DNA of 64,000 bases from an uncultured Gammaproteobacteria bacterium. Lineage in GTDB: Bacteria > Pseudomonadota > Gammaproteobacteria > DRLM01. Position numbers and translations under genes: made by a program. Of this stretch, positions 1,187-35,962 are shown in pieces (within the stretch, counting starts at the first letter, position 1; each line of letters starts with the position of its first letter). Location of the stretch: NCBI GenBank assembly GCA_963810615.1, contig CAWEOA010000002.1:654515-718514 (forward strand), written 5' to 3'. Below the pieces are notes generated by a model that was not told the origin of the DNA, did no database searches, and saw nothing but the letters and a program-made list of their open reading frames with translations.

Positions 1187-2109
<923 letters not shown>

Positions 2110-5092: not shown

Positions 5093-5167
5093 CACCGCAA
5101 AGACGCAAAGAATGCAGAAAAAATCCAAATATCAAATTTTTGCGGCCTTTGCGCCTTTGCGGTGAAT
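5093..5167. terminator. imperfect 19-nt inverted repeat between convergent genes; putative bidirectional terminator
   Basis: tcaccgcaaagacgcaaag and ctttgcgcctttgcggtga are reverse complements with one mismatch. They lie in the 111-bp gap between two convergent stop codons. Confidence 0.4.
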
Positions 5168-5186
5168 AGATTTTGCTTTTACTTAG

Positions 5187-6596: not shown

Positions 6597-6634
6597 GCCC
6601 AGGCTACTCGTTGTCGTTATCGTTCACTGAGAAT

Positions 6635-7093: not shown

Positions 7094-7176
7094 CAGCTTG
7101 TCCTTTCTTGGTTAGCACTCCGTGCGCCGGAGATTAACGCATTTCGCTGCTGGTCTAAAACGCACAGCCTATTTCT

Positions 7177-11082: not shown

Positions 11083-11330
11083 GGCAAGCGTTTCGTCATT
11101 CGTTTCGGGCTAAAGCCGGGTATTTTACGCGGCAAACACCGCTTGCGCATGCGGCGGGCGACATTCATCGTGCTTGCGTGCGTTTGGCGCCACAGCTGGG
11201 AAGTCCTTCGTGAGATCTTCCGCCACTTGCCCCGTGCTTCATGTTATAAAATGGCGTGCCGGCATGGCTATTCCGCAATCGCCGGCCCCTCGTATCAACA
11301 TCCGCAGCAGTAAGTCAGAAAGGATGGGCC

Positions 11331-12284
11331 ATGGGATTGCTGGTCAATGGTCAATGGCAGGACGCCTGGTATCCCACCGAAAAGACCGGCGGCCGCTTCG
11401 TCCGTCAGGAGAGCAGCTTCCGCAACTGGGTGACCGCGGACGGCTCCTCCGGCTACCTGGCGGAGCCGGGGCGCTATCATCTCTACGTGTCGCTGGCCTG
11501 CCCCTGGGCGCACCGCACCCTGATCTTTCGCAAGCTGAAAGGACTGGAAGACAGCATTTCCCTATCGATCGTCGATCCCTATATGGGTCCCCAAGGCTGG
11601 GCCTTCAGCGACTACCCCGGCTGCATCGCCGACACGGTCAACGGCTGCGACTACCTGCACCAGCTCTACACCAAGGTCCAGGCCGATTACACCGGCCGGG
11701 TCACGGTACCGGTATTGTTCGACAAACACAGCCAAACTATCGTCAATAATGAATCGTCCGAGATCATCCGCATGCTCAATGACGCCTTCGGCGGCGCCGG
11801 ACCGGATTTCTTTCCCGCCGAATTGGAAGACGAGATGAATGCCGTCAATGCCGAGGTCTACGCCGGCATCAATAACGGCGCCTATAAGGTGGGCTTCGCC
11901 ACCCGTCAGGCCGCCTATGAAGACGCATTCGACGCATTGTTCGCCGCCCTGGATAAGCTTGAGGAGCGGCTGTCACGGCAACGTTATCTGCTGGGCGGGC
12001 GCCTCACCGCCGCTGATTGGCGGCTGTTCACCACCCTGGTGCGCTTCGACGCCGTGTATTACGGGCACTTCAAATGTAATCTGCGGCGGCTGGTGGATTA
12101 CCCGAATCTATGGGACTACCTGCGCGAGCTCTATCAAATACCGGGCGTAGCGGAGACGGTGAATATGGATCACATCAAGACCCACTACTACCGCAGCCAC
12201 ACCACCATCAATCCCATCGGTATCGTGCCCAAGGGACCCTTGCTGGACTTCACGCTGCCCCATACCCGGCAAGGCCTGTCATGA
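11331..12284 (+). CDS. yqjG: glutathionyl-hydroquinone reductase (Xi-class glutathione S-transferase) YqjG
   Basis: The N-terminus MGLLVNGQWQDAWY...FRNWVTADGSSG...YHLYVSLACPWAHRTLIFRKLKGLE matches E. coli YqjG almost residue for residue. An AAAGGA SD precedes the ATG at 11331. Confidence 0.9.
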   Translation: MGLLVNGQWQDAWYPTEKTGGRFVRQESSFRNWVTADGSSGYLAEPGRYHLYVSLACPWAHRTLIFRKLKGLEDSISLSIVDPYMGPQGWAFSDYPGCIADTVNGCDYLHQLYTKVQADYTGRVTVPVLFDKHSQTIVNNESSEIIRMLNDAFGGAGPDFFPAELEDEMNAVNAEVYAGINNGAYKVGFATRQAAYEDAFDALFAALDKLEERLSRQRYLLGGRLTAADWRLFTTLVRFDAVYYGHFKCNLRRLVDYPNLWDYLRELYQIPGVAETVNMDHIKTHYYRSHTTINPIGIVPKGPLLDFTLPHTRQGLS

Positions 12285-13853
12285 CGGTCGCTTGCCGGCG
12301 AGGGCCTGTTTGAGCGGTTCCAGATAGTCCGCGTAATCCCGCCACCACCCCACCGCTGCGCTTTGCTTGAGCTGACTTGGCTGCCGTAGACCTGCGCCGG
12401 CGGAAAGCTGTTTGCCCTTGTATAACTCCACGCAGCGTTTGTTCCACTTAAGACCGCAAAACTCCACCATGGCCCGGGTGAGTTTCCTGGGGTCGCGCAC
12501 CAGGTCTTCGTAATGCACTTCGAGGATCGGTATATCGAGAACCTCACCCCAATGGATCATCAGTCCTTGATACTGACGATAATATGCCCCCAAATCAGCC
12601 AAGGCATGTGCATAAGGATGATCATCGCCGCTCTCTTGGAAATAACATGCCAGGCAGGTATCCAAGGGATCGCGCAGGCAGTGAATCACCCGCGCCATGG
12701 GAAACAGCAAGGCGATGATCCCCAGATACAGGAAATTTTGCGGCAAGGTATCGATGACCCGCTTGCTTTCGGGAAGGCGCTGCTCCAGTAGATCGAGATG
12801 GGGCTGGGCCCAGCCATCGCATTGTTCACGGCTGAGCTGGGTAATGTCGTTGCGCGGCGATGTTTGCGCCAGCGCTTCTTGAAATTCCATCGCCAAGCGG
12901 CCCATATCCGAGAACTCGCCCAGTGTCGCCATCTCTGGATGCATGGTCAGGATCTGCTCAACCAGGGCGCCCCCGGCGTGCGGCATGCCGACAATGAAGA
13001 TCAGTCGTTCCGAACAATTGCCGGCCCGCGGCGCACGCAACATAGCCTCGTGGTTGAAGGTCTGCATCACCTCGCCGATCCGGGACTGCCATTGCCGAGC
13101 GTCGAACTGCGCCGGAACGAGTCGCTGGCCAGCCTCAAAGTGGGGGAAGGCCTGGGCGAACTCGCCGCGTCCGTCATGGAGTCCTCCCAGGCGGAAATGG
13201 ATTTGGGCACGGCGCTCCGCCGCCAGATCGTCCTTGGCCAATAAGCCTTCCAGAAACGCGCGCGCCTCATCGTAACGCCCTTGGTCGATGCGCACCCCGG
13301 CCAGATCATAATAGGCCTCCGTCAGATCGGGATCACGTTTGAGAACCTGCTCCAGGGCGGCGGCGGCCTCGTCGAGATCGCCCAGTTGCTGCAAGACTCC
13401 ACCCAAAGATAGATAGGCGGCGACGCGTGATGGATTGAGCTGAATGGCCTGATGATAGTGGCTGAGCGCGGCGCGCGGATCGCCGCGCAATTGTGCGAGT
13501 CGCCCCAAGGCGTCGTAAGCCTCGGCCGAATCCGCCTTCAATGTCAGCGCCTGGCGATAGCACTCTTCGGCCTCGGCGAGTTTGGCCTGTAACTCCAAGG
13601 CATGGCCGAGATTGAGATACGCCTGGGCCGCGCCCGGTTGCAGGCTCACCGCCTTGCGCAAGGCGTTCTCCGCCTCGACGACACGGCCTAAACGACCATA
13701 AAGGGTGCCTGCCATGAAGCAGGACTCGGCATCCTGAGGCGCGAGTTCACAGAGCTTTTCAAAAAGGACTAGGGCCTCGCCGATGCGCTTGGCCTGGACG
13801 CAGGCAAACGCATGACGTTTCTTTGCCCGGATGAGGACCTGGTCTTTATTCAT
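12279..13853 (-). CDS. TPR-repeat protein with C-terminal sulfotransferase domain (paralog 1)
   Basis: The N-terminal half is TPR units (AxxYxxLGxxxxxxGxxxEA). The C-terminal half has the sulfotransferase 5'-PSB-like motif IFIVGMPHAGGALVEQIL and an RDP...YFQ motif. The start could be 13853 or 13931. Confidence 0.75.
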   Translation of the reverse strand: MNKDQVLIRAKKRHAFACVQAKRIGEALVLFEKLCELAPQDAESCFMAGTLYGRLGRVVEAENALRKAVSLQPGAAQAYLNLGHALELQAKLAEAEECYRQALTLKADSAEAYDALGRLAQLRGDPRAALSHYHQAIQLNPSRVAAYLSLGGVLQQLGDLDEAAAALEQVLKRDPDLTEAYYDLAGVRIDQGRYDEARAFLEGLLAKDDLAAERRAQIHFRLGGLHDGRGEFAQAFPHFEAGQRLVPAQFDARQWQSRIGEVMQTFNHEAMLRAPRAGNCSERLIFIVGMPHAGGALVEQILTMHPEMATLGEFSDMGRLAMEFQEALAQTSPRNDITQLSREQCDGWAQPHLDLLEQRLPESKRVIDTLPQNFLYLGIIALLFPMARVIHCLRDPLDTCLACYFQESGDDHPYAHALADLGAYYRQYQGLMIHWGEVLDIPILEVHYEDLVRDPRKLTRAMVEFCGLKWNKRCVELYKGKQLSAGAGLRQPSQLKQSAAVGWWRDYADYLEPLKQALAGKRPS

Positions 13854-14027
13854 GAAATGATCGCCGCCGTCTTCCCTTACTTGTGCAAATAGCTTGCACA
13901 ACAAGGGTTTTCGGCTTATCCGGGGATTCACTAAAGCCGACCCGGCGACGATTCAATCGTGACGCACTGCCAACACCTTGGCGCAGACCGCAATTATCCT
14001 GTTTCGCCCGGAAATGAGCGCTCGGCA

Positions 14028-15797
14028 TCAGGCGCCGGTGAGGGCCTTTTTGAGCGGTTCGAGATGATCCGCGTAATGCCGCCAACGGCCCATCGAACCG
14101 GAATAGATGGGCCGGCGCACCTGCCGAAAACTTGCGGTAGTAACGGAGCGCGCGCTTTTATGAAATTCCAAGCAGTGCTTGTCCCATTTGAGACCGCAAA
14201 ATTCCACCATTGCCCGGCCCAGCTTCTCCGAGTCACGCACTAAGTCTTCATAGCACAGTTCGAAGATGGGGATATCCAGGACTTTGCGCCAATGGCGCAT
14301 CAGACGCTGGTATTGGCGATAATACGCCCCCAGGTTGGCCAAATCGTAGGCATAAGGATGATCACCGGTGAACATCTGAAAATAGCATGACAGACAGGTG
14401 TCCAAGGGATCGCGCATGCAATGGATTACCCGTGCACCGGGAAATAGCAGGGCGATCCATCCCAAATGCAAAAAATTCTGCGGCATTTTATCTATCACCC
14501 GCAAGGCATTAGGGTATCTGCCGCCCAGCAGATCGAGATAACGCTGCGCCAAACTATTGCGTTGCTCGCGGCTCAACTGGGTGATGTCTTTGGCGGGAGA
14601 TGTGTGCTCAAGCAACTCCTGTAACCGGTCGGCCAGTAGGCTGATGTCCACCAGTTCGCCCGCCGCCGCCACCTCGGGATACATGGAAAGGATTTGTTCC
14701 ACCAAAGTGGTCCCTGAGCGCGGCATCCCCACAATAAAGATCGGTCTCTCCGAGCGGTTGTCCGCCCGCGGCGCACGCATCACGGCATCGTGACTGAACA
14801 TGTCAATCAAGTTGGTAATCCTGTCTTGCCATGCCCCGGCATCGAACGTCGCCGGAATAAGCTGGTTACCGGCCCGATAATGCGCAAAGGCCTGGGCATA
14901 CTCGCCGCGCTTGTCATAGAGCTGCCCCAAATTGAAATAGATTTGGGTGCGATGCTTGTCCGACAGGCCGTCCTTGGCCAACAAGCTTTCCAGGCGCGCA
15001 ATCGCCCCGTCATAATCCTTGGTGAAATGAGTCAGGCTCGCATAGACCAGGGCCACTTCCGGATAGTCTTGATAACGATCCAACACCGGCCTCAGACTCT
15101 CCAAGGCGGCTGGATAATCGCAAAGATGCTCCAGGATATAGGCCTCCACGGCCGTGGCTTCTACGTAATCCGGTTTGAGCTGTAAAACCCTGCGGATGTC
15201 GTGCAGGGCGTCTTCGTATAAGCCTTGGCCGATGCGCACTCCGGCAAGGTCATAGTGCGCACCGACATTATCCGGATCAAGGCGCAAGGCCTGGCCGATG
15301 CTATCGGCCGCCGCGTCATAGGCACACATGTGAATGCAGGCCTTGGCCCGGGAAAGGTGTGCCGTGAGCAGCGGCGGATTCAACTGGATAGCCTTTTCAT
15401 AATGGGCGATAGCGGCTTGCAGATCACCACCTTGCTGGCTGAGTCGCCCCAGAGAAGCATGGGCATCGGCCAAATCCGCTTTCAATGCCACTGCGCGCCG
15501 AAAGCATTCCTCGGCTTCGGCGAGCCGGCCCTGCAGCTCCAGGGTTTGACCGAGATTGAGATAGGCCGCGGCGGAGTCGGGCTGCAGGCCCACCGTCTTG
15601 CGCAAGGCGGCCTCCGCCTCGGCGATGCGGCCCATCCGCCCGTAAAGCGTACCCGCCATAAACCAGGACTCGGCATCCGACGGATCGATTTCGCAAATCT
15701 TCTGATACAGATGGAGGGCCTCACCGATACGATCGGCCTGCGCGCAGGCGAAGGCTTGGCGCTTTTTTGCTCGGGTAAGGGCGTTTTTCTTACTCAT
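14028..15797 (-). CDS. TPR-repeat protein with C-terminal sulfotransferase domain (paralog 2)
   Basis: It has the same architecture as the neighbour (IFIVGMPRSGTTLVEQIL; RDPLDTCLSCYFQ). The two are roughly 50-60 % identical by eye and are arranged head to tail. Confidence 0.75.
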   Translation of the reverse strand: MSKKNALTRAKKRQAFACAQADRIGEALHLYQKICEIDPSDAESWFMAGTLYGRMGRIAEAEAALRKTVGLQPDSAAAYLNLGQTLELQGRLAEAEECFRRAVALKADLADAHASLGRLSQQGGDLQAAIAHYEKAIQLNPPLLTAHLSRAKACIHMCAYDAAADSIGQALRLDPDNVGAHYDLAGVRIGQGLYEDALHDIRRVLQLKPDYVEATAVEAYILEHLCDYPAALESLRPVLDRYQDYPEVALVYASLTHFTKDYDGAIARLESLLAKDGLSDKHRTQIYFNLGQLYDKRGEYAQAFAHYRAGNQLIPATFDAGAWQDRITNLIDMFSHDAVMRAPRADNRSERPIFIVGMPRSGTTLVEQILSMYPEVAAAGELVDISLLADRLQELLEHTSPAKDITQLSREQRNSLAQRYLDLLGGRYPNALRVIDKMPQNFLHLGWIALLFPGARVIHCMRDPLDTCLSCYFQMFTGDHPYAYDLANLGAYYRQYQRLMRHWRKVLDIPIFELCYEDLVRDSEKLGRAMVEFCGLKWDKHCLEFHKSARSVTTASFRQVRRPIYSGSMGRWRHYADHLEPLKKALTGA

Positions 15798-15901
15798 TTT
15801 ATGATTCTCTGCCGCTGTCAAAATCCCCGCAGTAAATACACGCTCTTCAGCAATCTTCGGCTGCACTGCTCATAGATGAAGCTACCCGCTCAGGGAAACG
15901 C

Positions 15902-25063: not shown

Positions 25064-25366
25064 TCCCGCAATGGCCTGTGCTTAAACATTGGTATAGGTA
25101 ATCTGTTCATTATCGTGCCTTATCGGCCCGCATTCGACCCAACGCAGACCTTCGAAAGAGACGGAAGCCCCGCTCATGGCTGATAAGTACGGGTCCCGCT
25201 TTTCCGGGCTTGAAATGATCATACTCACGGCGTTACGTCCTATAATTAAACGGTAATATCAAGTTAAATCGGGGAAAGTTGAAAATGTATAACGAGACTC
25301 GGAGTCCCGTTCATATAACTGTTATGCGTCTTATCAGAAAGTGACGCATCCGGTGTCTATAGACAA

Positions 25367-26146
25367 ATGAAGAACCAGCACGATGAATTGTGTGAACTGG
25401 GTTGGAACGACTGGTTCGATCAACGGGCAGCATGCAAACCAACAGATACTGTCGCACGCGTTGCGGCTGTCGACCGCGACCAGTTACTACTCGTGGATCA
25501 AGCCGGTCATTTTCGAGCAAAACTGTCGGGTAGCTATTTGCACCACCATCACGATTCACATGAACTACCCTGCGTGGGTGACTGGGTGTGCGTGGAGAGA
25601 CAACTCGGTGACGACTTTGGGATGATCCACACGCTCCTTGATCGCAGGACTTCGCTGCGTAGAAAGTCGGCTGGAAACAGCATCGAGCACCAAATGATCG
25701 CGGCAAACCTCGACTATGTGGTGATCGTTCAGTCATGCCAATTCGATTTCAATCTGAATCGCTTGGAACGCTATCTCGTCATGGTGTTGGATGGCGGGGC
25801 GGAGCCGTACATTTTGCTAACCAAGACAGACCTCGTCGATTTTACCGTGCTGGCCTCACAGTTGGCTGAGATAGCTTCCGCCGGTATCACCGCACCGATT
25901 TTGCCGCTAAGCAACGTCACTCATGATGGGCTGGATAATCTCAAGAGACTGCTATTACCAGGAAAAACCTATTGCTTTGTCGGTTCATCCGGGGTTGGCA
26001 AGAGCACGCTAATAAACCAGTTGATTGGCCACCAAAGGTTGGAAATAGGTGTAGTCAGTGGGACGGGAGAAGGACGGCACACGACAGTTCGACGAGAGCT
26101 GATTCGTCTCGACGGGGGCGCACTGGTCATCATTCGTACGAACTAG
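25367..26146 (+). CDS. RsgA/YjeQ-like circularly permuted GTPase, truncated at the G3 motif and lacking the C-terminal zinc-finger domain (possible pseudogene)
   Basis: It aligns with RsgA through the OB fold, the G4 block (LLTKTDL), G1 GSSGVGKSTLIN and G2 GRHTT. Where RsgA has VIDSPG the ORF reads VIIRTN-stop, and no continuation exists in any frame. No SD precedes the ATG. Confidence 0.65.
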   Translation: MKNQHDELCELGWNDWFDQRAACKPTDTVARVAAVDRDQLLLVDQAGHFRAKLSGSYLHHHHDSHELPCVGDWVCVERQLGDDFGMIHTLLDRRTSLRRKSAGNSIEHQMIAANLDYVVIVQSCQFDFNLNRLERYLVMVLDGGAEPYILLTKTDLVDFTVLASQLAEIASAGITAPILPLSNVTHDGLDNLKRLLLPGKTYCFVGSSGVGKSTLINQLIGHQRLEIGVVSGTGEGRHTTVRRELIRLDGGALVIIRTN

Positions 26147-26161
26147 CATGATGAGATTCAT

Positions 26162-26935
26162 ATGAACACAGCGCTCTTCTTCACCACATGGCTCGCGGGT
26201 CTTCCTGGGGTTATTGTAGTAGCGTGGTTCGTGTTACCGATTCTCGTCGCGGATCGCCACCTCTCTGCACCGCTTTGGGTTGTACAGGTAGGAAGCGCAT
26301 TGCAAAGCGCTGTGCTGCTCGGGCTCGCAACAGCGGCAGGCACAGCATTGGCTCCCAAAGTCGGTCTTGCGGCTCCGGTATTTTCAGCCCTTATACAACA
26401 CAAGCATGCTATTGAAACACTTCGCCCACAATTGTTACCCAGTCTTGTCGGTGGCCTTGTAGGTGCCACGATTTTGTGGGTGTCGACTGCTGTTGCTCCG
26501 AAAGCCTTAGCAGAGGCCCAAACCAGGTTCTCCATGCCGATCGTCGCACGCCTACTCTATGGAGGCATCACGGAAGAGTTGTTGATTCGCTGGGGGGGCA
26601 TGACGCTGCTTGTTTGGCTTCTGTGGCATCTTGGACAGGGGGGTGCAGCCTCGCCTTCTGCCATCAGCGTATATTTAGCCATTTGTCTCAGCTCGCTACT
26701 GTTTGGTGCTGGTCACTTACCGGCTGTAGCGTCTATGGTTGGTCACATATCAGTTGGCATTGCCATATACGTCATCGCCGCAAATGCGGCATTTGGCATT
26801 GTTGCAGGCTGGCTGTATTGGCGATTTGGACTTGAGTCGGCAATACTAGCGCACATACTTGCTCATGGAGTCTTTCTCTTGGTTTCTCGGCGAGGAGGCA
26901 TCGCTAACGGTTCCAGTAAACGGTCGGCATGCTAA
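26162..26935 (+). CDS. CPBP-family (CAAX protease/Abi, PF02517-type) intramembrane metalloprotease
   Basis: It is a polytopic membrane protein with the three CPBP motifs: EExxxR (ITEELLIRWGG), FxxxH (LLFGAGHLPA) and HxxxN/H (AHILAHGVF). Confidence 0.8.
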   Translation: MNTALFFTTWLAGLPGVIVVAWFVLPILVADRHLSAPLWVVQVGSALQSAVLLGLATAAGTALAPKVGLAAPVFSALIQHKHAIETLRPQLLPSLVGGLVGATILWVSTAVAPKALAEAQTRFSMPIVARLLYGGITEELLIRWGGMTLLVWLLWHLGQGGAASPSAISVYLAICLSSLLFGAGHLPAVASMVGHISVGIAIYVIAANAAFGIVAGWLYWRFGLESAILAHILAHGVFLLVSRRGGIANGSSKRSAC

Positions 26936-26971
26936 CCCGCCGCCCCTATTATATCTGAGCATTGAACGCCC

Positions 26972-27056
26972 GCTTCTGGCCGCATTCGGAAGTAGGCGCG
27001 GTGCAACGCGAACTGGCACTTTCGACCCGAAGCGGACGTTCAGTAATACAATGTCC
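26972..27056 (+). repeat. ~85-nt conserved non-coding element, copy 1 (downstream of the CPBP gene)
   Basis: It is about 75 % identical to copy 2 by manual alignment, sharing the blocks gcttctggccg, ggaag.aggc, cgcgaactggc, tcgacccg and gcgg.cgt. Confidence 0.7.
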
Positions 27057-27362
27057 GAGCTGATGAATCTGGGCACTGGAGTAATGGGATTTCCTTGCAT
27101 AAGCCAGAGAGACGGTCTTCAGAATCAAAGCAGCCCTTTGAAAATAGAGGCTCAATTACATCCGCTTTGTAAAAAGCGATAACCCTAAATACATCATTAA
27201 TTTTGTCGGTAATTTTTACAAGTCAGAGAATGGGGGAAATATGTCTTGTATTATCTAATTGATAAAGAATATTAAAATATTTATGGCATTTAATTTGCCT
27301 TTTTATATTAAAAATTATAAGGGGGTTCTGATAACCACACAACGGAAGGGGAGGGAGCTTTT

Positions 27363-27974
27363 ATGAAAGCATACAAATTCAGCATGCGAGCATTATGCAT
27401 ATCCATAATAGCGAGTTTGCAATTGCTTGGACTTTCGCAAGAGGCAGCTGCAAGTATTATCGTCCAACTCGATAGCGTTGCGCCAGATTTAGTATTTCCT
27501 GGCAATTACCGATGGACATTCTCGGCCATAGCCTCATCAACCGATGGGTTCGGCTCATCAGTAGATAACTACTTCACCATCTATGATCTTCCCGGTTCTA
27601 TTACCACTGTTGAAGCCAGTGCCGTATATTGGGGCAGTGCATCCAGCGCTTTGACGGGAGTCACCCCAGTGGGACTGACTCCGGCTGATGATCCAAGTAA
27701 GCCTAATGTTACATTTAGATATATGGACTCTAGCGATCGTCCCGGAAACGCGGCATTTCAAGCCGGCGATCATTTCGATATCATTTTGTCAGATGGGATT
27801 CCTATCGATCTCCAGTATTCGTGGCAGGATTACAGCGCCTATCCAATTGTAAATAATCCACTGCAGAGTGGTCTGGGCACAGTTCAAAACAGCGTACCTG
27901 AGCCTGCAACTATCGGTTTAATAGGTCTCGGTTTAGCCGGATTGGGAATCAGCCGTCGAAAACGCGTCAACTAG
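27363..27974 (+). CDS. PEP-CTERM sorting-domain protein (exosortase substrate)
   Basis: It has a signal peptide and a C-terminal VPEP-ATIGLIGLGLAGLGI-SRRKR tripartite PEP-CTERM motif. A strong AGGGGAGGGAG SD precedes the start. Confidence 0.85.
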   Translation: MKAYKFSMRALCISIIASLQLLGLSQEAAASIIVQLDSVAPDLVFPGNYRWTFSAIASSTDGFGSSVDNYFTIYDLPGSITTVEASAVYWGSASSALTGVTPVGLTPADDPSKPNVTFRYMDSSDRPGNAAFQAGDHFDIILSDGIPIDLQYSWQDYSAYPIVNNPLQSGLGTVQNSVPEPATIGLIGLGLAGLGISRRKRVN

Positions 27975-27996
27975 ACGAATCCGTTATCGTGTAAGC

Positions 27997-28025
27997 AAAC
28001 CCCGCTTCGGCGGGGTTTTATTTTC
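27997..28025 (+). terminator. rho-independent terminator
   Basis: aaaccccgc-ttcg-gcggggttt is a perfect stem-loop followed by TTATTTT, and it lies 22 nt after the PEP-CTERM stop. Confidence 0.8.
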
Positions 28026-28072
28026 GTGAATCACGAGTCAAAGTGCAGCTGTGTAGTAGTGTGTAAAAGGCT

Positions 28073-28157
28073 GCTTCTGGCCGATGACGGAAGAAGGCAC
28101 AGCTAACCGCGAACTGGCGCTATCGACCCGCTGCGGGCGTCCGGTCAACATGAGCCA
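28073..28157 (+). repeat. ~85-nt conserved non-coding element, copy 2 (downstream of the PEP-CTERM gene and its terminator)
   Basis: See copy 1. The orientation is the same. Confidence 0.7.
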
Positions 28158-28372
28158 CCTGGCCAATAAGTTTCCTCCAAAACACCCAAATCTTACGGCA
28201 TCACGACTAATATGGGGTTAGACACTCCCGCCTGCTCCCTCGGTACACTCAACATCTGCAACAAATCAAACAGTGGACGATAACCTTTCAACATCAGAAT
28301 CCTCAACAATCACAACATACATGCGATGTGGAGGCGAAGGTTGCAAATACTGCACGGGAGGTTAGAACACTT

Positions 28373-28528
28373 ATGGACCTACACGAATCATTGTGTGAAA
28401 TATTAATTGCTGAAAAGATGGAGGAGAATCCACGGTTAACAAAGAAGGCTGCGGCTGAAATGGTTAATCGCGAGTTAAAAGAACAAGCGGCAGAAAATGA
28501 TGATATTTTCAGGTGTAGTGGCGATTAA
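28373..28528 (+). CDS. small hypothetical protein (51 aa)
   Basis: The ATG is preceded by GGGAGG, and the product is charged and helical (MDLHESLCEILIAEKMEENPRLTKK...). There is no homology support. Confidence 0.25.
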   Translation: MDLHESLCEILIAEKMEENPRLTKKAAAEMVNRELKEQAAENDDIFRCSGD

Positions 28529-28819
28529 CATTATATCGGGGCACATAAAAACATAGGAGTCATGCGCTGGAACCCGGTGCTGGCCAATTTTTATTTAAAA
28601 TCGTGATAATTTAATTATCTCGTTCTATATCAGTGGCCTTATGATTTAGAGGTCCACTTTCAGAGCGGACGTTCTTTCGGATTCGATACCATTCGGCAAA
28701 AGATATGGCAGCTCAATGTCTTGGGTATAACGCTTGTAAAGCAAGGTGGAAAACAGTGCTGAACATGCCATACTTTATAAAAAGATACTAAATTAGTGTG
28801 ATGCTGGGGAGGCAGTGTT

Positions 28820-29242
28820 ATGCCATACATCGTAGCTCAACATCCAAAGTTGGATGTGGTGGAACTTAAGCTCACCGGATTGATTACCGGAGTTGACTTA
28901 AGGAAAGCAACGTCCGAATGCATCGCAATACAGAAGCAGAATGGAATAAAGAGGTTTCTAGTTGATGCGAACGAGGGGGAAGTGGTCGCATCATTCAATG
29001 AGCTTTTCGAAATAGTAAGTGAGCAATATCACATTGAAGGACTCGATAAGAACAGTCGCATTGCGGTGATGCTTCCAACTACTTTAAGTGCAAAAGCCGC
29101 TGCAGATTTCTACGAAGCCGTATGCTTAAAAGGTGGGTGGAATGCACTGGTGTTTCCAAGCAATGAAAGCGCACTAGATTGGTTGATGGATACCGCTGAC
29201 ACAAGCAAGTCAACTGATAACGGGCCTCTTCACCGGTCCTAA
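28820..29242 (+). CDS. SpoIIAA-like/STAS-fold protein (DUF3478-type), paralog A
   Basis: A GGGGAGG SD precedes the start. The pattern LKLTG.ITG....EAT..CIA.QKQ...RFLVD..E.E..ASF...........RIAV.LPTT........FYE.V...GW.A.VF......A.DWL matches, as far as I recall, the SpoIIAA-like family consensus (RVLVDL.DFEGW ... RVAVVGD ... VRYF ... A..WL). Confidence 0.6.
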   Translation: MPYIVAQHPKLDVVELKLTGLITGVDLRKATSECIAIQKQNGIKRFLVDANEGEVVASFNELFEIVSEQYHIEGLDKNSRIAVMLPTTLSAKAAADFYEAVCLKGGWNALVFPSNESALDWLMDTADTSKSTDNGPLHRS

Positions 29243-29368
29243 AACGACCCAAAGCGGCAACGTCAATTTCTTGCGCTTCAGCGAATTAAGAAACACGGAA
29301 AACGGTGCGGCGCATGTCATACTTTAATAAAGCATATTAGCTTGCTGAGATATTGGAGGAAGTCGACT

Positions 29369-29773
29369 ATGCCATATACCATAACGTATGATCCTGAGTC
29401 AGATATCGTCAACCTGGCATTCACCGGGGAAATTACTGGGATAGTGATATCGGAAGCAACGTCTAAATGTATCGCCCTTCAGAAGCAGTCGCGTGCATTG
29501 CGCTTTCTAGTCGAAGTAAATGGGTGGGAAGTTGTCGCGTCATTCGTTGATATTTACAAACTTATTTACGATCAATACGCGGCAGAAGCAGCACATCGTC
29601 TATCCCGTATTGCTGTTGTACTTCCAACTACGGCAAGCGGACAAACTGCTGCAACCTTCTACGAAACTGTAAGCCAAAATGCTGGTTGGAAAGCACAGGT
29701 ATTTGCAAGCCGTAAAAATGCAATTGATTGGCTAACGACTAGCGAAAATATCAATGTCGTTGCTGCAGATTAG
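29369..29773 (+). CDS. SpoIIAA-like/STAS-fold protein (DUF3478-type), paralog B
   Basis: A GGAGGAAG SD precedes the start. It is about 45 % identical to paralog A, and both have upstream regions containing catactttaataaa. Confidence 0.6.
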   Translation: MPYTITYDPESDIVNLAFTGEITGIVISEATSKCIALQKQSRALRFLVEVNGWEVVASFVDIYKLIYDQYAAEAAHRLSRIAVVLPTTASGQTAATFYETVSQNAGWKAQVFASRKNAIDWLTTSENINVVAAD

Positions 29774-29858
29774 CGTATTTATCCAACGTAGCTCACTCAG
29801 CAGAACATCCAATTCTCGCGACACGGTAAGGTCACCTTCCCCACTCGTATGACCGCTT

Positions 29859-30236
29859 CTGGCCGGCAAGCGACCGATCGGCGCGGTCGTTCCCGGGTTG
29901 TGATGGTCTTAAACTTCAGTTTTCTCAGACATTTCCAGGGCGTCGTCAACCTCGATCCCAAGATATCTGACCGTGCTTTCCAGCTTTGTGTGCCCAAGCA
30001 GCAGCTGAACAGCTCGAAGATTCTTTGTTCTCCGGTAGATCAATGTTGCTTTTGTACGACGCAGGGTGTGTGTTCCATACTCCCCAGGATCCAGCCCAGC
30101 GAGAGCCACCCACTTTTTCACAATACGAGCGTATTGCCGCGTAGAAATATGTAGAGACTCCCTTAGCCGGCTAGGGAAAAGGAACTGACCCGAAGTGAGC
30201 TGTGCCTTGGCAATCCATGCCTCAACAGCCTCGCGC
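29859..30236. repeat. direct repeat copy 1 (3' portion of the recombinase gene), ~95 % identical to 32045-32422
   Basis: Manual alignment of the two stretches shows near-identity over about 380 nt, with a few substitutions and one 4-nt indel. Confidence 0.85.
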
Positions 30237-30544
30237 GTCTGGTCGGTCAACTCAAACTTCACCGGCTGTGCGGTCTTTTGCTGCATGACGGTCGTCCGTG
30301 ATATTGCCTTGCCGCTGTGTGCCACATCCCTCACTTGAAGCTTGACGATATCGCAGCCCCGAAGCTTGCTGTCGATTGCCAGGTTGAAAAGGGCAAGGTC
30401 TCTGATGCGTCTGGCCAATTGCAGTCGAATTCGGATTGCCCAGATCTCGCGAAGCTTCAATGGCGGCTTCGGCCCGATCAACCGATCCTTATTCCAAGGG
30501 ATGTGGGCGGCTGTGGCGGCTGTATTGTCTTGATTGATGTACAT
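29909..30544 (-). CDS. tyrosine-type site-specific recombinase/integrase (short form, catalytic domain)
   Basis: The C-terminal HTLRRTKATLIYRRT...LLLGHTKLESTVRYLGI carries the R...HxxR...Y catalytic signature of phage-integrase-family recombinases. A GGAGG SD lies 9 nt before the ATG at 30544. Confidence 0.8.
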   Translation of the reverse strand: MYINQDNTAATAAHIPWNKDRLIGPKPPLKLREIWAIRIRLQLARRIRDLALFNLAIDSKLRGCDIVKLQVRDVAHSGKAISRTTVMQQKTAQPVKFELTDQTREAVEAWIAKAQLTSGQFLFPSRLRESLHISTRQYARIVKKWVALAGLDPGEYGTHTLRRTKATLIYRRTKNLRAVQLLLGHTKLESTVRYLGIEVDDALEMSEKTEV

Positions 30545-30599
30545 GGTGTGTTTCCTCCATTCTGACTAGGGAAACACAAGTTTGGTTGATCGCAGCAGG

Positions 30600-30642
30600 T
30601 GGCGCTTGCCGACCCTTAGCCGACGTGGGCGTGAGTGTCAGC
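30600..30642 (+). repeat. partial third copy (3' half) of the ~85-nt element, about 55 nt upstream of the recombinase start codon
   Basis: tggcgcttgccgaccc..gccgacgtgggcgt aligns with tggcgctatcgaccc..gctgcgggcgt in copy 2. Confidence 0.5.
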
Positions 30643-30939
30643 TTTGAATAGATCCATGCAGAAAAGGGCCGCGGCGAGGTCTAGTCCGGGAGGATGATCC
30701 AAAATCGTGTCGAAATCTTTTACAATCAGACTGTCGCCGCCCCCAGATCAACCACAGGCCGGCTTGTAACAAACTGAAAACTTAAGTGCCTTTCATTCAC
30801 GGCACATAAATTGCTGCCATCAAGAACGGCCAGAGTGACGGCGTGGGGGGCACTCCGATATAAAAACGCGAATAAGGAGCGTCCGCGATGGCTTCGTTTA
30901 ATATGCACGAGCCATAAACATTCACATTGAGGAGACACC

Positions 30940-31806
30940 ATGAGACTTTCCGCCTGGCCCTGGCTCGGGATCCTGGCTGCCGCCATCACGATTGGCGCGG
31001 CGTCGGAGGCACGGGCGACACCGACCTATTGGAACCTATTCAACATCGAGGGTGAGAACAGCCTCAGCGCGGGTTTCATTACCTACGCCAGCCAGATTGA
31101 CATGCTGTTCGACATCAATCGGACGGGCTTCTATCAACCGAATGGCTACGGAGCGGGCCAGAACGTCGTCGGCACCGGATCGGACGGAACGACCTACTGG
31201 AACCTATTCAACATCGAGGGTGAGAACAGCGCTTTGGCAGGCTTCATCACCTATGACTCGCAGTTCGACATGCTGTTCGACATCAACCGGACGGGCTTCT
31301 ACCAGCCGAACTTCCACGGGGCGGCCCAGAACGTCGTCGGCAGCGGGTCGGACGGAACGACCTACTGGAACCTGTTCAACTTCGAGGGCGAGAGCACGTC
31401 CAACGCGGTCTACGTTACCTATGACAGCCTGATCGACATGCTGTTCGACAACAACCGGACGGGCTCCTTCATCCCGGACGGTTACGGGGCAGCCCAGAAC
31501 GTCGTCGGCAGCGGGTCGGACGGAACGACCTACTGGAACCTATTCAACATCGAGGGTGAGAACAGCCTCAGCGCGGGTTTCATTACCTACGCCACGCTGA
31601 TCGACATGCTGAACGACACTAACCGAGTGGTGTTCGCCCAGCCGAATGGCTACGCGGCGGGCCAGAACGTCGTCGGCAGCGGCGCGACCGTGATGGCCAT
31701 AACGGGGCCGGGGCCTGTGACCACCGTTCCCGAGCCGGAGACGCTATGGTTGCTGGGGCTGGGGCTGGTCGCTCTCAGCTTTCAGGCGAGGCACCGCGTG
31801 CGCTGA
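30940..31806 (+). CDS. PEP-CTERM protein with four 57-aa tandem repeats
   Basis: It has a signal peptide, four repeats starting TYWNLFNIEGENS...QNVVGSGSDGT, and a C-terminal VPEPETLWLLGLGLVAL-SFQARHRVR motif. A GAGGAGA SD precedes the start. Confidence 0.85.
   Translation: MRLSAWPWLGILAAAITIGAASEARATPTYWNLFNIEGENSLSAGFITYASQIDMLFDINRTGFYQPNGYGAGQNVVGTGSDGTTYWNLFNIEGENSALAGFITYDSQFDMLFDINRTGFYQPNFHGAAQNVVGSGSDGTTYWNLFNFEGESTSNAVYVTYDSLIDMLFDNNRTGSFIPDGYGAAQNVVGSGSDGTTYWNLFNIEGENSLSAGFITYATLIDMLNDTNRVVFAQPNGYAAGQNVVGSGATVMAITGPGPVTTVPEPETLWLLGLGLVALSFQARHRVR
31024..31704 (+). repeat. four in-frame 171-nt tandem repeats inside the PEP-CTERM gene
   Basis: Repeats 1 and 4 are identical at the nucleotide level over more than 60 nt (acctattggaacctattcaacatcgagggtgagaacagcctcagcgcgggtttcattacctacgcc). 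Confidence 0.9.
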
Positions 31807-32044
31807 AAAAATCCGGGTCAGATCACAGTTCTTTCTAATATAGATATACATCACTGAGCCAACTCCACAAGAAGATGGATAATGGCATGCAAACCCCGTT
31901 TTGCTCCACCGTGTATACCTCAACACATCATCCAGCGCGGAAATAACCGCGATGCATGCTTTTACGCAGATCAAGACCTTCAGTTCAAGCTAGACTACTT
32001 AAAAAAGCGGACAGTCAGCCTCAAGTAAAGAACGGCTCGTATTG

Positions 32045-32440
32045 GCCGGCAAGCGACCGATCGGCGCGGCCGTTCCCAGACCGTGGTGGCCTTAACCTTC
32101 AGCTTGCTCAGACATTTCCAGGGCGTCGTTAACCTCGACCCCAAGATATCTGACAGTGCTTTCCGGCTTTGTGTGCCCAAGCAGCAGCTGAACAGCTCGA
32201 AGATTCCTTGTTCGCGGGTAGATCAACGTTGCTTTTGTACGATTCAGGCTGTGTGTTCCATCCTCCCCAGGATCCAGCCAGCCCAGCGAGAGCCACCCAC
32301 TTTTTCACAATACGAGCGTATTGCCGCGTAGAAATATGTAGAGACTCCCTTAGTCGGCTCGGGAAAAGGAGCTGACCTGAAGTGAGCTGTTCTTTAGCAA
32401 TCCATGCCTTAATAGCCTTTCGTGTCTGGGTGGACATTCA
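32045..32440 (-). pseudogene. frameshifted 3' fragment of a second recombinase gene (duplicate of 29859-30236)
   Basis: It encodes ...AIKAWIAKEQLTSGQLLFPSRLRESLHISTRQYARIVKKWVALAGL and then shifts frame at a ccagcc duplication. It has no N-terminal part and no start. Confidence 0.75.
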
Positions 32441-32492
32441 ACGTACAAATTGGGCGCTGCGCGCTATTGAGCAGCCCCTCTCTAATGGAGGG

Positions 32493-32720
32493 TTATGCCG
32501 GGATTACTTCATTACAGACTACACCAGTCTCTTTGTTTTCGATTCGACTTTTAAACTTGTCATCCAAAGACGGGGCAGCAAGTCTCCCGATTAGCACATA
32601 GTCATTTTGCGTAACAGCCTTGGCGCTGGGGAACAAAAGAGGAGACGCAATTGCGATGGCTGCAAGTATGCAAATGACGATAACGACGAATAACGGAACA
32701 GCACGATTCGATAGCTTCAT
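32493..32720 (-). CDS. small exported or membrane hypothetical protein (75 aa)
   Basis: A GGAGG SD lies 8 nt before the ATG, and the N-terminus is a hydrophobic signal/TM segment. Confidence 0.4.
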   Translation of the reverse strand: MKLSNRAVPLFVVIVICILAAIAIASPLLFPSAKAVTQNDYVLIGRLAAPSLDDKFKSRIENKETGVVCNEVIPA

Positions 32721-33816
32721 TTAAATAACCTCCAACTTAAATAAAACAACGATAGTCACTCGATGTTTGTGAATGGGCATAACAGGCAACAGGCGGGCGC
32801 TCAGCATGCGCCGCAATTGATTAATATGCAATGGTATTGGTGCGCCGGCGTCAGTATATAAATCACAACAGTGCTGATATTGCCTGCAGGCTAGGGCTCG
32901 GAAGCGACAGTTCGCTACTGGCCGGGGGTGAACTTTTGAATGACCGCTATCATACAGCAGGAAAGATCAATAGAAACATAGAGTCTCTACGTTTCACCGC
33001 GATGCTCAGCGAAGCCATCCCATGGTTCGACACATGAGAGTCACACATTCATACGTGAGTAGCCGATAAGTGCTAAGCTGCTATTAACGTAAACGCAGGG
33101 GAAAATGTTATATCAACCGAAGAACAACGTGAGGCAGAGGCTGCGTCCCTTGAGCAGGAACGCCTAGCCTTCAATAGAACACATACTGCATGGATCGCCG
33201 TTCAAAATCAGTTTACACCCTTTGGTAATGGACAGCCTACTCAGGACAGCATTGATCAATACTATGCTGCCGAAATTGATTGGGAAGTAGCCCAAGCAAA
33301 AGTGAAGCGTTTCGGCATCGAAACAAGGAGTGATGCATGATAATAAAGCCTACCCGAAACGACGTACACGGAGCCGCCGCCATACTGATAAAGGTAAAAG
33401 GGGCTCCCGCACTTATGAAAGTGCTCGGCACATACGGTGCCGTCCGTACCGGCCAAATTCAGATGCGCGACTGGCCTCGATTTATCACAGATTGTCAGAA
33501 AGTGGAAACTGCATAGCTATCGTTTATCTGTCCAGCCTTTTCGGATCCAAGTTGATCAATGCGAATTTGTCCACTTGAAAATTGGACACTCAGTTCACCT
33601 AGAGCAATGTCGGGTATTGGCCGACACTTGCCTTGACCGATAGGCAGGCGCGACGGGATATCAATACTGAGGACTGACAATATTCGATAACTACGGTTGT
33701 TTCAGCGTGATGCAGATGCCCAACATATTAGTTAGCGGTCGCGGCTATGAGAGACGACAGAATTAGCACGGAAGAATCATGAGCACGACGCCCTCAATTA
33801 CGATAACAGGTCGTTA

Positions 33817-34287
33817 CTACCAGGCATGGATGTAATTAAGTGAGACCTGCATAGGCTCGAAAGGAGCCTGGATGTTGTAAATGGCGCCGTGATAGTAACT
33901 ATCCAGCGTCACATTGAGCGACAACCTTCCCGTATTGGTATTTGTATCCGCTCCCGTGGAAGCCTCGCTGAAATTAGCATTCCCGCCGGACACGGACCTG
34001 TCCGAGGTTTGCCATCCAGCATTCACGCCACGTACGCCAGACGCGAGTTGTGACGGACGGACCTCGATGCCACTCTGCCGTCCGGCATTGCGCGTAGTTG
34101 CCTGAGAAGACAGGACGGCGGGATCACAGCGGGAGAAGATCGCAGTGCACAGAAGGAGAGTGGCGCTCTGCGACCCAGATACCGCTCGCGGCGCAACCGC
34201 CCCTTCAGCGCGGCATCCAACTGAGGCACCCATTCCAAAAACAACGAGAGACAAGTTTAAGATTAAAACGCGCCTCTGACAGGACAT
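33817..34287 (-). CDS. secreted hypothetical protein (156 aa)
   Basis: An AAAAGGAG SD lies 7 nt before the ATG. The product has a signal peptide, a Ser/Gly/Asn/Thr-rich mature region and a C-terminal aromatic residue. Confidence 0.55.
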   Translation of the reverse strand: MSCQRRVLILNLSLVVFGMGASVGCRAEGAVAPRAVSGSQSATLLLCTAIFSRCDPAVLSSQATTRNAGRQSGIEVRPSQLASGVRGVNAGWQTSDRSVSGGNANFSEASTGADTNTNTGRLSLNVTLDSYYHGAIYNIQAPFEPMQVSLNYIHAW

Positions 34288-34915
34288 CTGGAAACTCCTT
34301 TTTAGCTGGCTGCTGGCTGCGATTAACTGACTATTGTACGCTTTTTTTAAATACCAACAAAAGGTTAGACAACAATTTCGTCAAAAATATCCCTGCGAAT
34401 AGGAGGCCACCCCAAACGAGGAGTGGATAGTTCTTTCGCAAACTTCAGCTTTGGAGGCAACATACAAAAGTCAGATATCAAAAATTCAACAAATTGCGCA
34501 CCTTCCAATTCTTGATAAAGTAAGTCATCAATAGGCCTATATATTGTCGCGAACTCGGAGCTAAACAGCTTAATTAGTTGGCTTTCAATTTAGACAGGGC
34601 AAGGCGCTCAAAGAGCATGAATCCGCTTAGCTCGTCAGGGAAGTGGGCTCTCAGCCCTGTCTAATCAAGTGACTGATTGAACTCGCAGCCGATGCGAGAC
34701 ATTCCAACAGCTGCACTTCGGTATAGATAATGACAGAGAAATTAGGCACGACCAGTGGCTACACTTAACGCGCTCGTTTCGCTCTCATGGGCATAATATG
34801 CAGTGTGATATAAATGAAAAAAACTCAACAGAGAAGGAAATCGACAACCGTGTTACGTGGTTTAAACTTATGTAGGGATGAATGATCCGTTACACATGGC
34901 GCGCTAAGCACCTAC

Positions 34916-35962
34916 TTAGCAGATACGCGGCAAGGGATCGCTGCTCAACCAGTCCACCAGGCGGTTGCCGCCGAAGGCGGTCTCCATCTCCACAAATCGA
35001 TGCTCGTCGGCGCGCACCTCGCCGATGATGACGGCATCCTTACCCAAGGGGTGATGGCGCATCACCGCCACCAGATCGTCGGCACATTGGGGCGGACACA
35101 CGGCCACCAGCTTGCCTTCGTTGGCAATGTATAAAGGGTCGAGGCCGAGGAATTCGCAGGCAGCGCTCACCGCGGGACGGACCGGGATGTCGCGCTCGCG
35201 GATGATCATCCCTACGCCGGACTGGCGCGCCCATTCATTGAGCACCGCGGCCAGGCCGCCGCGGGTGGGATCGCGTAGACAATGGATGTCCGGCGCCACC
35301 TCAATCATAGCCGCCACCAGTTCGTGCAAGGCCGCGCTGTCGGACCGCAATTCGGTCTCAAACTGCAGGTGTTCCCGCTGCGAGAGGATGGCCACGCCGT
35401 GGTCGCCGATGCTGCCGCTGAGGATGATGCGATCACCCGATCGCGCGCGGTCGGCGCCAATATTCACGTCGGACGGCACGCTGCCCACGCCGGTAGTGGT
35501 AATGAACACCCCATCGCCCTTGCCGCGCTCCACCACCTTGGTATCGCCGGTGACCACGACCACATCGGCGGCGCGCGCCGCCGCCGCCATGGAATCGACG
35601 ATGCGCCGCAAGTCCGTCAGGGGGAAGCCTTCTTCGATGATGAAGCTCGCCGACAGATACAGCGGCCGCGCCCCGGCCATAGCGATGTCGTTGACAGTGC
35701 CGTGCACCGCCAGGCTGCCGATGTCGCCGCCGGGAAAGAACAGCGGCGACACCACGAAGCTGTCTGTGGTGAGTACCAGGCGCCCGGGCGGCGGTTCGAA
35801 GGCCGCCTGATCGTTCATCGCGCGCAGCCAATCGTTGTCGAAGGCGGCGACGAATAATTCCTCGATCAGTTGCGCCGTGGCGCGCCCGCCGCTGCCGTGA
35901 CCGAGCTCAACGCGGCCATGGGCGAAATCCAGGGGTGGAAAATAATCTTTATTCTTGCTCAT
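34916..35962 (-). CDS. hypE: hydrogenase maturation protein HypE (carbamoyl dehydratase)
   Basis: It has an AIR-synthase-related fold and the conserved C-terminal PRIC with the catalytic Cys as the last residue. Confidence 0.9.
   Translation of the reverse strand: MSKNKDYFPPLDFAHGRVELGHGSGGRATAQLIEELFVAAFDNDWLRAMNDQAAFEPPPGRLVLTTDSFVVSPLFFPGGDIGSLAVHGTVNDIAMAGARPLYLSASFIIEEGFPLTDLRRIVDSMAAAARAADVVVVTGDTKVVERGKGDGVFITTTGVGSVPSDVNIGADRARSGDRIILSGSIGDHGVAILSQREHLQFETELRSDSAALHELVAAMIEVAPDIHCLRDPTRGGLAAVLNEWARQSGVGMIIRERDIPVRPAVSAACEFLGLDPLYIANEGKLVAVCPPQCADDLVAVMRHHPLGKDAVIIGEVRADEHRFVEMETAFGGNRLVDWLSSDPLPRIC

Follow-up and report, generated by a model that had tools for sequence, protein, structure and literature searches.

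A 64,000-nucleotide (nt) stretch of the genome of an uncultured gammaproteobacterium of the DRLM01 lineage (contig CAWEOA010000002.1, positions 654,515 to 718,514; hereafter, the window) carries a low-GC island between the genes iaaA and hypE. Within this island, a gene encoding a tyrosine recombinase of 211 amino acids (aa) and a direct repeat of part of that gene lie on the minus strand on either side of a repeat-rich gene for a PEP-CTERM protein. The intact recombinase gene, here designated copy A, occupies a compact unit of ~750 bp that is bounded by short inverted sites (unit A), while the partial gene, copy B, retains one such site. In minus-strand order (descending coordinates), two weak site remnants of the island precede copy B and its right site; next come a transposase remnant, the repeat-rich PEP-CTERM gene, and unit A. 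Beyond these lie two STAS-like genes, a small open reading frame (ORF), a gene-less pair of inverted sites (mini module), a second PEP-CTERM gene, another mini module, and genes for a CPBP-type protease and an RsgA-like protein.

The direct repeat and its decayed copy

A single BLASTN alignment joins positions 29860-30242 to positions 32043-32429 (387 columns, 90.2% identity, 34 mismatches, and one 4-nt gap; E 5e-146); under more permissive local alignment, the similarity is traceable over 29844-30284 and 32036-32475, respectively. The existence of the direct repeat, first noticed when the locus was described from its letters alone (the sequence-only reading), is thereby confirmed, with several of its particulars amended. 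Identity is 90.2% rather than ~95%, and the repeated part is not the 3′ third of the gene but its 3′ half (recombinase residues ~99-211), together with the stop codon and ~50 nt of conserved downstream sequence. Copy B is indeed shifted in frame, by a 4-nt insertion, but it lacks about half of the gene, namely everything upstream of residue ~88-99, and not the 5′ two-thirds.

An alignment search for an N-terminal remnant of copy B scored within the range of shuffled sequence. BLASTN detected no third copy of the repeat in the 64-kb window, and no duplication around copies A and B beyond the repeat itself was found there. Mismatches between the two copies are distributed over codon positions 1, 2, and 3 as 13:8:9, i.e., without position bias, and amino-acid-changing differences affect 18 codons of copy B (catalytic R162 among them) versus 10 with synonymous ones, indicating that copy B is a drifting pseudogene. 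At 90%, the identity between copies A and B exceeds their identity to the nearest database relative (locus L092; 85% and 82%).

A 750-bp unit bounded by inverted sites

Intact unit A spans ~750 bp (window positions 29860-30615), and the 211-aa recombinase is the single protein that it encodes. Each end of the unit is a 24-bp site made up of a 9-10-bp box of the GNCNGC type, a 6-bp spacer (GGCCGG, GGGTCG, or CGGCCA), and a second box, with the two end-sites mutually inverted; at either end, the inner box faces the gene and the outer box faces away from it. Conservation of this layout was followed in the best 80 loci of at least 535 confirmed recombinase matches, which were obtained in a scan of genomes with one representative per species. 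In these 80 loci, a hairpin directly follows the stop codon and is succeeded by CCGGCCA-NN-AGCNGNC, while the motif in inverted form, GNCNGC-NNN-GGCCGG/GGGTCGG-TTAGCGACC, was located by 5′-flank alignment ~60-70 nt ahead of the start codon. The hairpin after the stop codon of copy A has equivalents at the same position in its relatives, with different stem sequences. Single-copy versions of the unit, for which the sequence-only reading had proposed a search, are common.

Evidence for movement of the unit comes from an all-against-all BLASTN comparison, in which units from different species and a plasmid proved to be 99-99.9% identical: L020/L082/L017 (Stutzerimonas, P. aeruginosa plasmid pPUV-1, and a Pseudomonas metagenome bin, respectively), L055/L076, and L046/L057. 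Relative to a fixed anchor codon, the alignments of these near-identical units reach no further than ~90-105 nt upstream and 636-650 nt downstream; their flanks are unrelated. Identity opens with GGCCGG-TTAGCGACC and closes with GGTCGCTAA-CCGGCC, with outer boxes that vary between otherwise identical copies (GNCCGCTTNT on the left and ANNAGCNGNC on the right). The same pattern is seen for the unit in the window: copy A and L092 share 85% identity between the two spacers and none outside them, with the similarity starting at GGTCGGCAA on the left side. On the right side, the similarity among copy A, copy B, and L092 ends at one base of the spacer (CCGGCCA), beyond which their outer boxes differ (GAAGCGGTCATAC in copy A, ATACGAGCCGTTC in copy B, and ATATCGGACCTTC in L092). 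Furthermore, one identical 211-aa protein occurs in three genomic contexts (L094, L095, and L096), which share ~110 nt of upstream DNA and whose downstream flanks part right after GACCGCTTCGGGTCG. In Pseudomonas units, the left and right spacers are fully complementary. No flanking direct repeat that would mark a target duplication is evident at the unit junctions, for which only filled copies were compared.

Since near-identical copies are alike only between the two spacers, the exchange of DNA has occurred within the spacer. Strand exchange within a core site is what tyrosine recombinases do, and the GGCC core shared by both junctions fits a recombinase crossover region; the 211-aa protein itself would be the enzyme that performs this exchange. 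The unit answers to the operational description of an insertion sequence (IS), being short, encoding only its own mobility enzyme, having inverted ends, and occurring as near-identical copies in unrelated contexts. At the same time, it has a dif-module-like layout, with the inner boxes pointing inward at both ends, and the mini modules are built alike.

The sole Pfam match of the recombinase is PF00589 (Phage_integrase; residues 45-195, E 2.6e-21, 76.6 bits versus a cut-off of 27.1), and the protein also matches the 'integrase' family phrog_216 (E 4e-34). All catalytic residues are placed by alignment with XerD (R62, K90, H159, R162, H185, and Y194); in an alignment of 34 homologues, H159 is conserved in at least 90% and the other five are invariant. 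In the AlphaFold model (mean pLDDT 74), the catalytic domain begins near residue 31, preceded by ~30 residues of which 1-26 are disordered (pLDDT below 50). The closest fold matches of the model are XerA, XerH, Cre, the C-terminal domain of XerD, and IntI, and matches in both sequence and fold reach only the catalytic domains of the target proteins. The recombinase, as modelled, is therefore one without a core-binding domain. Every group in a broad classification of tyrosine recombinases has at least a core-binding and a catalytic domain (PMC8138268), and a family consisting of the catalytic domain only falls outside that scheme.

None of the pertinent NCBIfam cut-offs is reached by the recombinase, whether for Xer proteins (XerA, 72 vs. 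220; XerC, 64 vs. 335; XerD, 46 vs. 330; XerS, 37 vs. 267), for integron integrases (TIGR02249, 29.4 vs. 265; NF011946, 22.1 vs. 435; the match covers residues 131-195 only), or for Fim-type invertases (NF007371, 26.5 vs. 222; NF007370, 20.4 vs. 221). In sequence and predicted fold, Xer proteins and Cre have the catalytic domains most similar to its own; it is not IntI-like, one of the classes considered in the sequence-only reading. All 8000 scored recombinase candidates matched at E 0.001 or better. The best 120 relatives, which come from several phyla, are at least 70% identical and almost all 201-222 aa long. Because the family is uniformly ~210 aa, 211 aa is a normal length and does not denote a truncated IntI; the gene is not a broken one. 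The sequence-only reading was thus correct on the length and on the presence of the catalytic domain alone, but the protein is not unusually short for the large family to which it belongs.

A plasmid collection contributed 439 records with a relative of the recombinase, including pMOL30 of Cupriavidus metallidurans CH34 and megaplasmids of Pseudomonas aeruginosa, and these relatives carry the annotation 'tyrosine-type recombinase/integrase' and nothing more specific. The 80 related loci have no conserved protein gene beside the recombinase; candidate partner-gene clusters next to it turned out to be out-of-frame overlaps or IS transposases. PADLOC defence-system models matched neither the recombinase nor the neighboring small genes. 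A second tyrosine recombinase or an IntI was not found in the window, where weak tblastn hits to the recombinase at 12.3-13.5 kb lie within TPR/sulfotransferase-like genes. Two adjacent paralogous TPR-repeat genes with a sulfotransferase-like C-terminal part are located at 12279-13931 and 14028-15866 (minus strand).

Just upstream of the start codon, single-sequence folds place the same hairpin, which pairs with the Shine-Dalgarno sequence, in ~70 distinct related loci. Its stems vary by lineage yet always pair (TTGTCCTCC/GGAGGACAA, GTGTTTCC/GGAAACAC, and ATCTCCCTT/AAAGGAGAT). These compensatory changes suggest that the hairpin keeps translation off on read-through transcripts, and masking of the ribosome-binding site in this way is typical of tightly controlled mobility genes.

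In addition to complete units, the same end-sites occur in mini modules of 55-80 nt, in which two inverted sites surround a short loop without a gene. A covariance model was built from 18 mini modules, all from Pseudomonas and Burkholderiaceae (Paraburkholderia and Burkholderia) loci. When applied to the window, it ranked the two mini modules of the island first, followed by the tails of copy A (right end of unit A, 29845-29891, 18.9 bits) and copy B (32028-32084, 14.4 bits), with nothing else convincing in the 64 kb; a degenerate remnant of low score contains a one-mismatch match to the site motif at 32910-32924. In the related loci, the model gave 113 hits at E 0.05 or better, corresponding to ~50-60 elements after strand merging. 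Cargo-free single 24-bp sites are found as well (e.g., L052:110 and L060:6913), with 32 pattern hits versus ~4 in shuffled sequence. Under a hand-given structure, 72.7% of the stem cells of the 18 mini modules are paired, compared to 22-45% in slid controls, while RNAalifold recovered a 5-bp core only, because the stems are out of register. With the usual spacers, GGGTCG on the left and CGGCCA on the right, only one strand folds well (39.9 vs. 14.9 bits), and column pair 17-52 of the alignment is U-G in 14 of the 18 mini modules. The hairpins had no match in Rfam at gathering thresholds or at E values up to 5.

Other insertion sequences also seem to favor the end-sites as targets. IS1182-family elements (ISCfr1-like on pPUV-1) sit exactly at the site spacer, directly before CGGCCA or GGCCGG, and a second element, with the end ATTCTGTTGAAAAAGTCGG, is likewise inserted at the spacer of these sites; insertions at the spacer were seen at L082:2323-3942 and in L055, L001, L038, L047, L011, and L014. 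When the empty site of the unit was sought on Pseudomonas megaplasmids, ISCfr1 copies dominated the matches, and in pPUV-1 the region is accessory.

The island between iaaA and hypE

The island has a GC content of 0.40-0.59, compared to ~0.6 in most of the flanking intervals, and holds every site copy found in the window. A 15-nt site motif has 11 matches in the window versus 2.6 expected by chance; five of them, each on the minus strand, fall within 26.9-33.7 kb, and the end remnant of copy B, which scores just under the motif threshold, represents a sixth co-oriented site. Two metagenomic relatives, L087 and L088, whose iaaA genes are 88% identical to the one in the window, have hypE only 615 nt from iaaA, so the empty site foreseen in the sequence-only reading does exist; in a further relative (L083, 85%), the gap between the two genes is 2.4 kb. 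Homology with L087 ends at 25131 and returns at 34688, such that 374 nt of a small PEP-CTERM gene have given way to 9556 nt in the window, with the breakpoint lying between CAT and CGGCCA of that gene. In total, the co-oriented elements of the 9.6-kb island comprise an intact unit, a decayed unit, and two mini modules; the island interrupts a small gene in an iaaA-hypE interval that is conserved otherwise. None of the close relatives found has a recombinase at the iaaA-hypE locus. Since the empty interval in the relatives (L087:7999-8372 and L088:3400-3693) carries a 97-aa PEP-CTERM gene, PEP-CTERM genes were present at the locus before the island arrived. Between the island and hypE, a 61-nt stretch of the window (34720-34780) is missing in the otherwise collinear L087.

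The PEP-CTERM gene between the two copies is intact, as the sequence-only reading had it: PF07589 is matched at residues 262-282 of 288 (29.2 bits vs. 20.7, E 9e-7), and there are weak matches to NCBIfam PEP-CTERM families. Its repeats, previously described as four of 57 aa, were resolved by Tandem Repeats Finder as 3.9 copies with a period of 168 nt (56 aa). The gene is not part of the ~750-bp unit, which carries the recombinase only; it resides in a passenger segment (30625-32035) that is bounded by outer boxes. The transposase remnant in the same segment matches plasmid genes annotated 'transposase' (tblastn, E 3e-6), and its 48-aa translation had no match in Pfam or NCBIfam. It may resemble REP-associated or IS200-type transposases.

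A second island of this kind was identified in L091 (ENA contig_49727, positions 1-15000), with two co-oriented recombinase genes 10 kb apart and five co-oriented sites; it also holds an IS1182-type transposase gene and cytochrome P460 genes. Coordinates of the features in the window are compiled in Table 1.

Table 1. Positions of the recombinase unit, its decayed copy, related sites, and surrounding genes in the 64-kb window
Feature	Position	Strand	Basis or remark
iaaA	24176-25063		Island flank
Low-GC mosaic island between iaaA and hypE	25132-34687		GC content, homology breakpoints; contains every site copy found in the window
Gene-less mini module, two inverted end-sites, same architecture as the next	26962-27040	-	Covariance model, 39.9 bits, E 1e-9; opposite strand, 14.9 bits
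Gene-less mini module, two inverted end-sites, 40-nt loop	28063-28141	-	Covariance model, 37.0 bits, E 7.5e-9
Unit A right end-site, inner box-spacer-outer box, GGTCGCTTG-CCGGCC-AGAAGCGGTC	29851-29875	-	
Hairpin between stop codon and right end-site, CGACCG-N7-CGGTCG, one arm overlapping the inner box	29871-29889	-	Sequence
Intact recombinase gene (copy A), 211 aa, tyrosine-recombinase catalytic domain only	29909-30544	-	ORF, Pfam
Hairpin pairing with the recombinase ribosome-binding site, GTGTTTCC...GGAGGAAACAC	30547-30578	-	Folds of related loci
Unit A left end-site, outer box-spacer-inner box, GTCGGCTAAG-GGTCGG-CAAGCGCC	30601-30624	-	5′-flank alignment
Intact PEP-CTERM gene, 288 aa, passenger between unit A left site and copy B right site	30940-31806	+	
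N-terminal remnant of a transposase gene, 40-48 codons, between PEP-CTERM gene and copy B	31882-32000	+	tblastn
Copy B, decayed 3′ half of a second unit (putative), residues ~88/99-211	32036-32475	-	Alignments
Copy B end-site remnant	32036-32058	-	Own outer box, ATACGAGCCGTTC
Copy B stop codon	32092-32094	-	Alignments
4-nt insertion in copy B (tandem AGCC on the plus strand), shifts the reading frame	32277-32283	-	Alignments, sequence
Weak degenerate end-site remnant	32904-32958	-	Covariance model, 10.4 bits, E about 1; not significant alone
First 10 codons of the small PEP-CTERM gene that is whole in empty-site relatives	34689-34718	-	tblastn (L088 protein), BLASTN (L087)
hypE	34916-35962		Island flank

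Several other genes of the island were noted. Tandem STAS/SpoIIAA-like paralogues (28820-29242 and 29342-29773, plus strand), which are 71% identical over a 139-nt stretch, adjoin the right site of unit A. A CPBP/Rce1-like membrane protease gene (26162-26935, plus strand) is directly followed by a mini module, and an RsgA-like GTPase gene (25367-26146, plus strand; 259 aa) looks truncated, with its match stopping at position 261 of a 347-position model. No tRNA or tmRNA that could serve as an integration target is located near the repeat; the only tRNA of the window is at 63310.

Origin of the repeat and comparison with known systems

Taken together, the repeat is probably the decayed second copy of a compact, recombinase-only mobile unit, and such units probably built the mosaic of the island. 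In the mechanism proposed here, the recombinase would bind the boxes as a dimer and exchange strands inside the GGCC-type spacer; the unit, or another module, would be released as a circle bearing a palindromic inner-inner site, and this circle could then enter any resident outer-outer site. Repeated entries and site-site exchanges would pile up modules and passenger genes, among them the two PEP-CTERM genes, the STAS genes, and others. Copy B would have entered or recombined separately from copy A, later losing its 5′ half and drifting as a pseudogene. Separate entry of the two copies is suggested by the fact that their similarity stops at the same spacer base with different outer boxes beyond it, which is not expected from a single block duplication. 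The tandem site-specific integration put forward in the sequence-only reading survives in part, namely as related co-oriented mobile units within an inserted island; a single shared target does not, as each end lies in its own palindrome-like site.

A number of observations weigh against this explanation. No recombination product was observed, and a search of metagenome contigs for the predicted circle junction returned only three unrelated hairpins. For an individual 750-bp unit, no locus was found in both filled and empty form; the empty site at iaaA-hypE is that of the whole island, and the empty relatives have no convincing site at the position of the left edge of the island. Neither a site nor an IS end adjoins the point at which copy B is cut short on its 5′ side. 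Lacking a core-binding domain, the recombinase may depend on a second protein. There is also a systematic difference between the left spacer (GGGTCG) and the right one (CGGCCA); if the sites recombined as plain duplexes, this mismatch would be an obstacle to excision through exchange of left with right. The mini-module stems show modest covariation, the observed score being reached by 11 of 500 shuffles. Finally, the seven bases that follow the outer box of copy A (ATACGAG) recur in copy B, which could mean that copy B arose in a block duplication and then underwent a 9-nt deletion. Such a deletion in the site of copy B was considered and retained as a minor alternative only, given that the bases of copy B fit the outer-box consensus ungapped.

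Alternatively, the substrate might be folded single-stranded DNA, with a mini module or a pair of sites forming a hairpin, comparable to IntI acting on attC or XerCD acting on the CTX phage genome. This variant of the proposed mechanism, which does not exclude the double-strand version, is somewhat unlikely. The conserved difference between GGGTCG on the left and CGGCCA on the right yields G-T wobble on one strand only, in line with the U-G pair at columns 17-52 and with the difference of 39.9 versus 14.9 bits between the two strands, and all sites face the same way in the window as well as in L091. However, each arm is also a complete box-spacer-box duplex site, the spacers of Pseudomonas units are fully complementary, the orientation bias over all loci is only ~26 to 15 by hand tally, and covariation is, as noted above, modest.

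A plain segmental duplication, in which the 3′ half of the gene and its downstream sequence were copied once by replication slippage or unequal crossing-over and then decayed, with no part played by site-specific recombination, is quite unlikely. It would account for the higher identity between copies A and B (90%) than between either copy and L092 (85% and 82%), for the neutral decay of copy B, and, through a 9-nt deletion in a shared flank, for the ATACGAG that follows the outer box of copy A and the spacer of copy B. Nevertheless, nothing else is duplicated around the two copies, and the 13 bases of copy B past the spacer fit the outer-box consensus without a gap (covariance model rank 5). 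Moreover, the outer boxes of copies A and B differ in the manner of independent copies elsewhere, and the island is full of co-oriented sites.

It is improbable that the recombinase is a FimB/FimE-like DNA invertase that flips the PEP-CTERM module or its own gene to switch surface-protein expression. Its size resembles that of the ~200-aa FimB/FimE class, NCBIfam models labelled 'tyrosine-type DNA invertase' match it weakly (E 4e-6 and 3e-4), every module at this locus is bracketed by inverted sites, and PEP-CTERM proteins are surface proteins. Yet the model score is far under the cut-off (26.5 vs. 222), the sites that face the PEP-CTERM gene have unlike spacers (CCGGCCA and GGGTCGG), and no relative was seen with the module in the opposite orientation. 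Near-identical units in unrelated flanks of different species indicate movement rather than flipping alone; inversion could be a side activity of the recombinase. An integron cassette array, or an attC cluster without integrase in which the recombinase is a degenerate IntI, is rejected as extremely improbable: although the small and mostly co-oriented ORFs of the island are each followed by an imperfect 55-80-nt palindrome and one site copy ends in AAC...GTT, these ends vary among copies, the integron-integrase models score 29 versus 265 and 22 versus 435, the window encodes no other tyrosine recombinase, the recombinase gene lies between two sites and not beside an attI, and its family is uniformly ~210 aa and so not made up of truncated IntI proteins.

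With the repeat read as the remnant of a mobile unit, the architecture is most like that of the pdif modules found on Acinetobacter plasmids, from which it differs in having a recombinase of its own. pdif modules carry variable cargo between two inverted arm-spacer-arm sites, are strung into mosaics in many contexts, and have arms swapped at their junctions; their sites are 28-bp XerC/XerD sites that depend on both host Xer proteins. Modules bracketed by inverted arm-spacer-arm sites, mosaics, and arm swaps are thus common to both systems, whereas the island has GNCNGC boxes with a GGCC-type spacer, and one of its module types has its own catalytic-domain-only recombinase. Compared by eye, the box and spacer sequences do not resemble the dif consensus. 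Among Xer proteins, XerA, XerH, and XerD have the closest catalytic domains in sequence and fold, and XerH and XerA act alone on palindrome-like sites; in contrast to the ~280-360 aa of Xer proteins, which include a core-binding domain, the recombinase has ~30 disordered residues in its place.

Integron cassettes share with the island a tyrosine recombinase, imperfect 55-80-nt palindromes after small genes, strand asymmetry, and accumulation in one orientation. They differ in that the island has no IntI signature, attI, or conserved R''/R' ends, that the recombinase gene is inside the module, and that there are two complete duplex-type sites in place of one folded attC. FimB/FimE invertases are likewise ~200 aa, consist essentially of the catalytic domain, and act at short inverted repeats, but the scores of the recombinase against them are far under cut-off, its units move between genomes and sites, and no invertible promoter was identified at the locus. 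As in REPIN-RAYT systems, short palindromic noncoding elements are scattered in the vicinity of a gene that has inverted copies of the same sequence on both sides. RAYTs, however, belong to the HUH (Y1) single-strand transposases and are passed on vertically (PMC3116915, PMC5581495). In contrast, the present enzyme matches PF00589 only and not PF01797, and its near-identical units occur across genera and plasmids. With insertion sequences, the unit has in common a length under 1 kb, the coding of its own mobility enzyme only, inverted ends, a masked ribosome-binding site, and gene-less miniatures; unlike in these, its ends are recombination sites shared with the target and not transposase-bound ends with target duplications. 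No IS family is known to use an integrase-type tyrosine recombinase.

No description of the recombinase element was found in the open-access full-text literature, which was searched with site sequences and protein accessions included; a description elsewhere is possible. Tentatively, and with less confidence than is placed in the mobile origin of the repeat, the unit may represent an undescribed class, namely the smallest self-sufficient tyrosine-recombinase unit (~0.75 kb), which would lack a core-binding domain, use 24-bp sites, spawn mini modules, and form dif-module-like or integron-like mosaics in chromosomes and plasmids of many phyla, possibly by acting on a folded strand.

The duplicate as such is a case of ordinary decay; the unit behind it is compact, very widespread, and unannotated. 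If the proposed explanation is correct, thousands of genes labelled only 'tyrosine-type recombinase/integrase' would be the engines of a very compact mobile module, and their sites would mark where bacterial genomes and plasmids swap small packets of genes. One 211-aa protein and a 24-bp site would then constitute a minimal system, offering a route to understanding how a recombinase functions without a core-binding domain, as well as a model for the unsolved movement of modules flanked by inverted Xer-type sites. In the genome considered here, such units would account for the growth of the iaaA-hypE interval from 0.6 kb to 9.9 kb and for the gathering of PEP-CTERM surface-protein genes at this locus.

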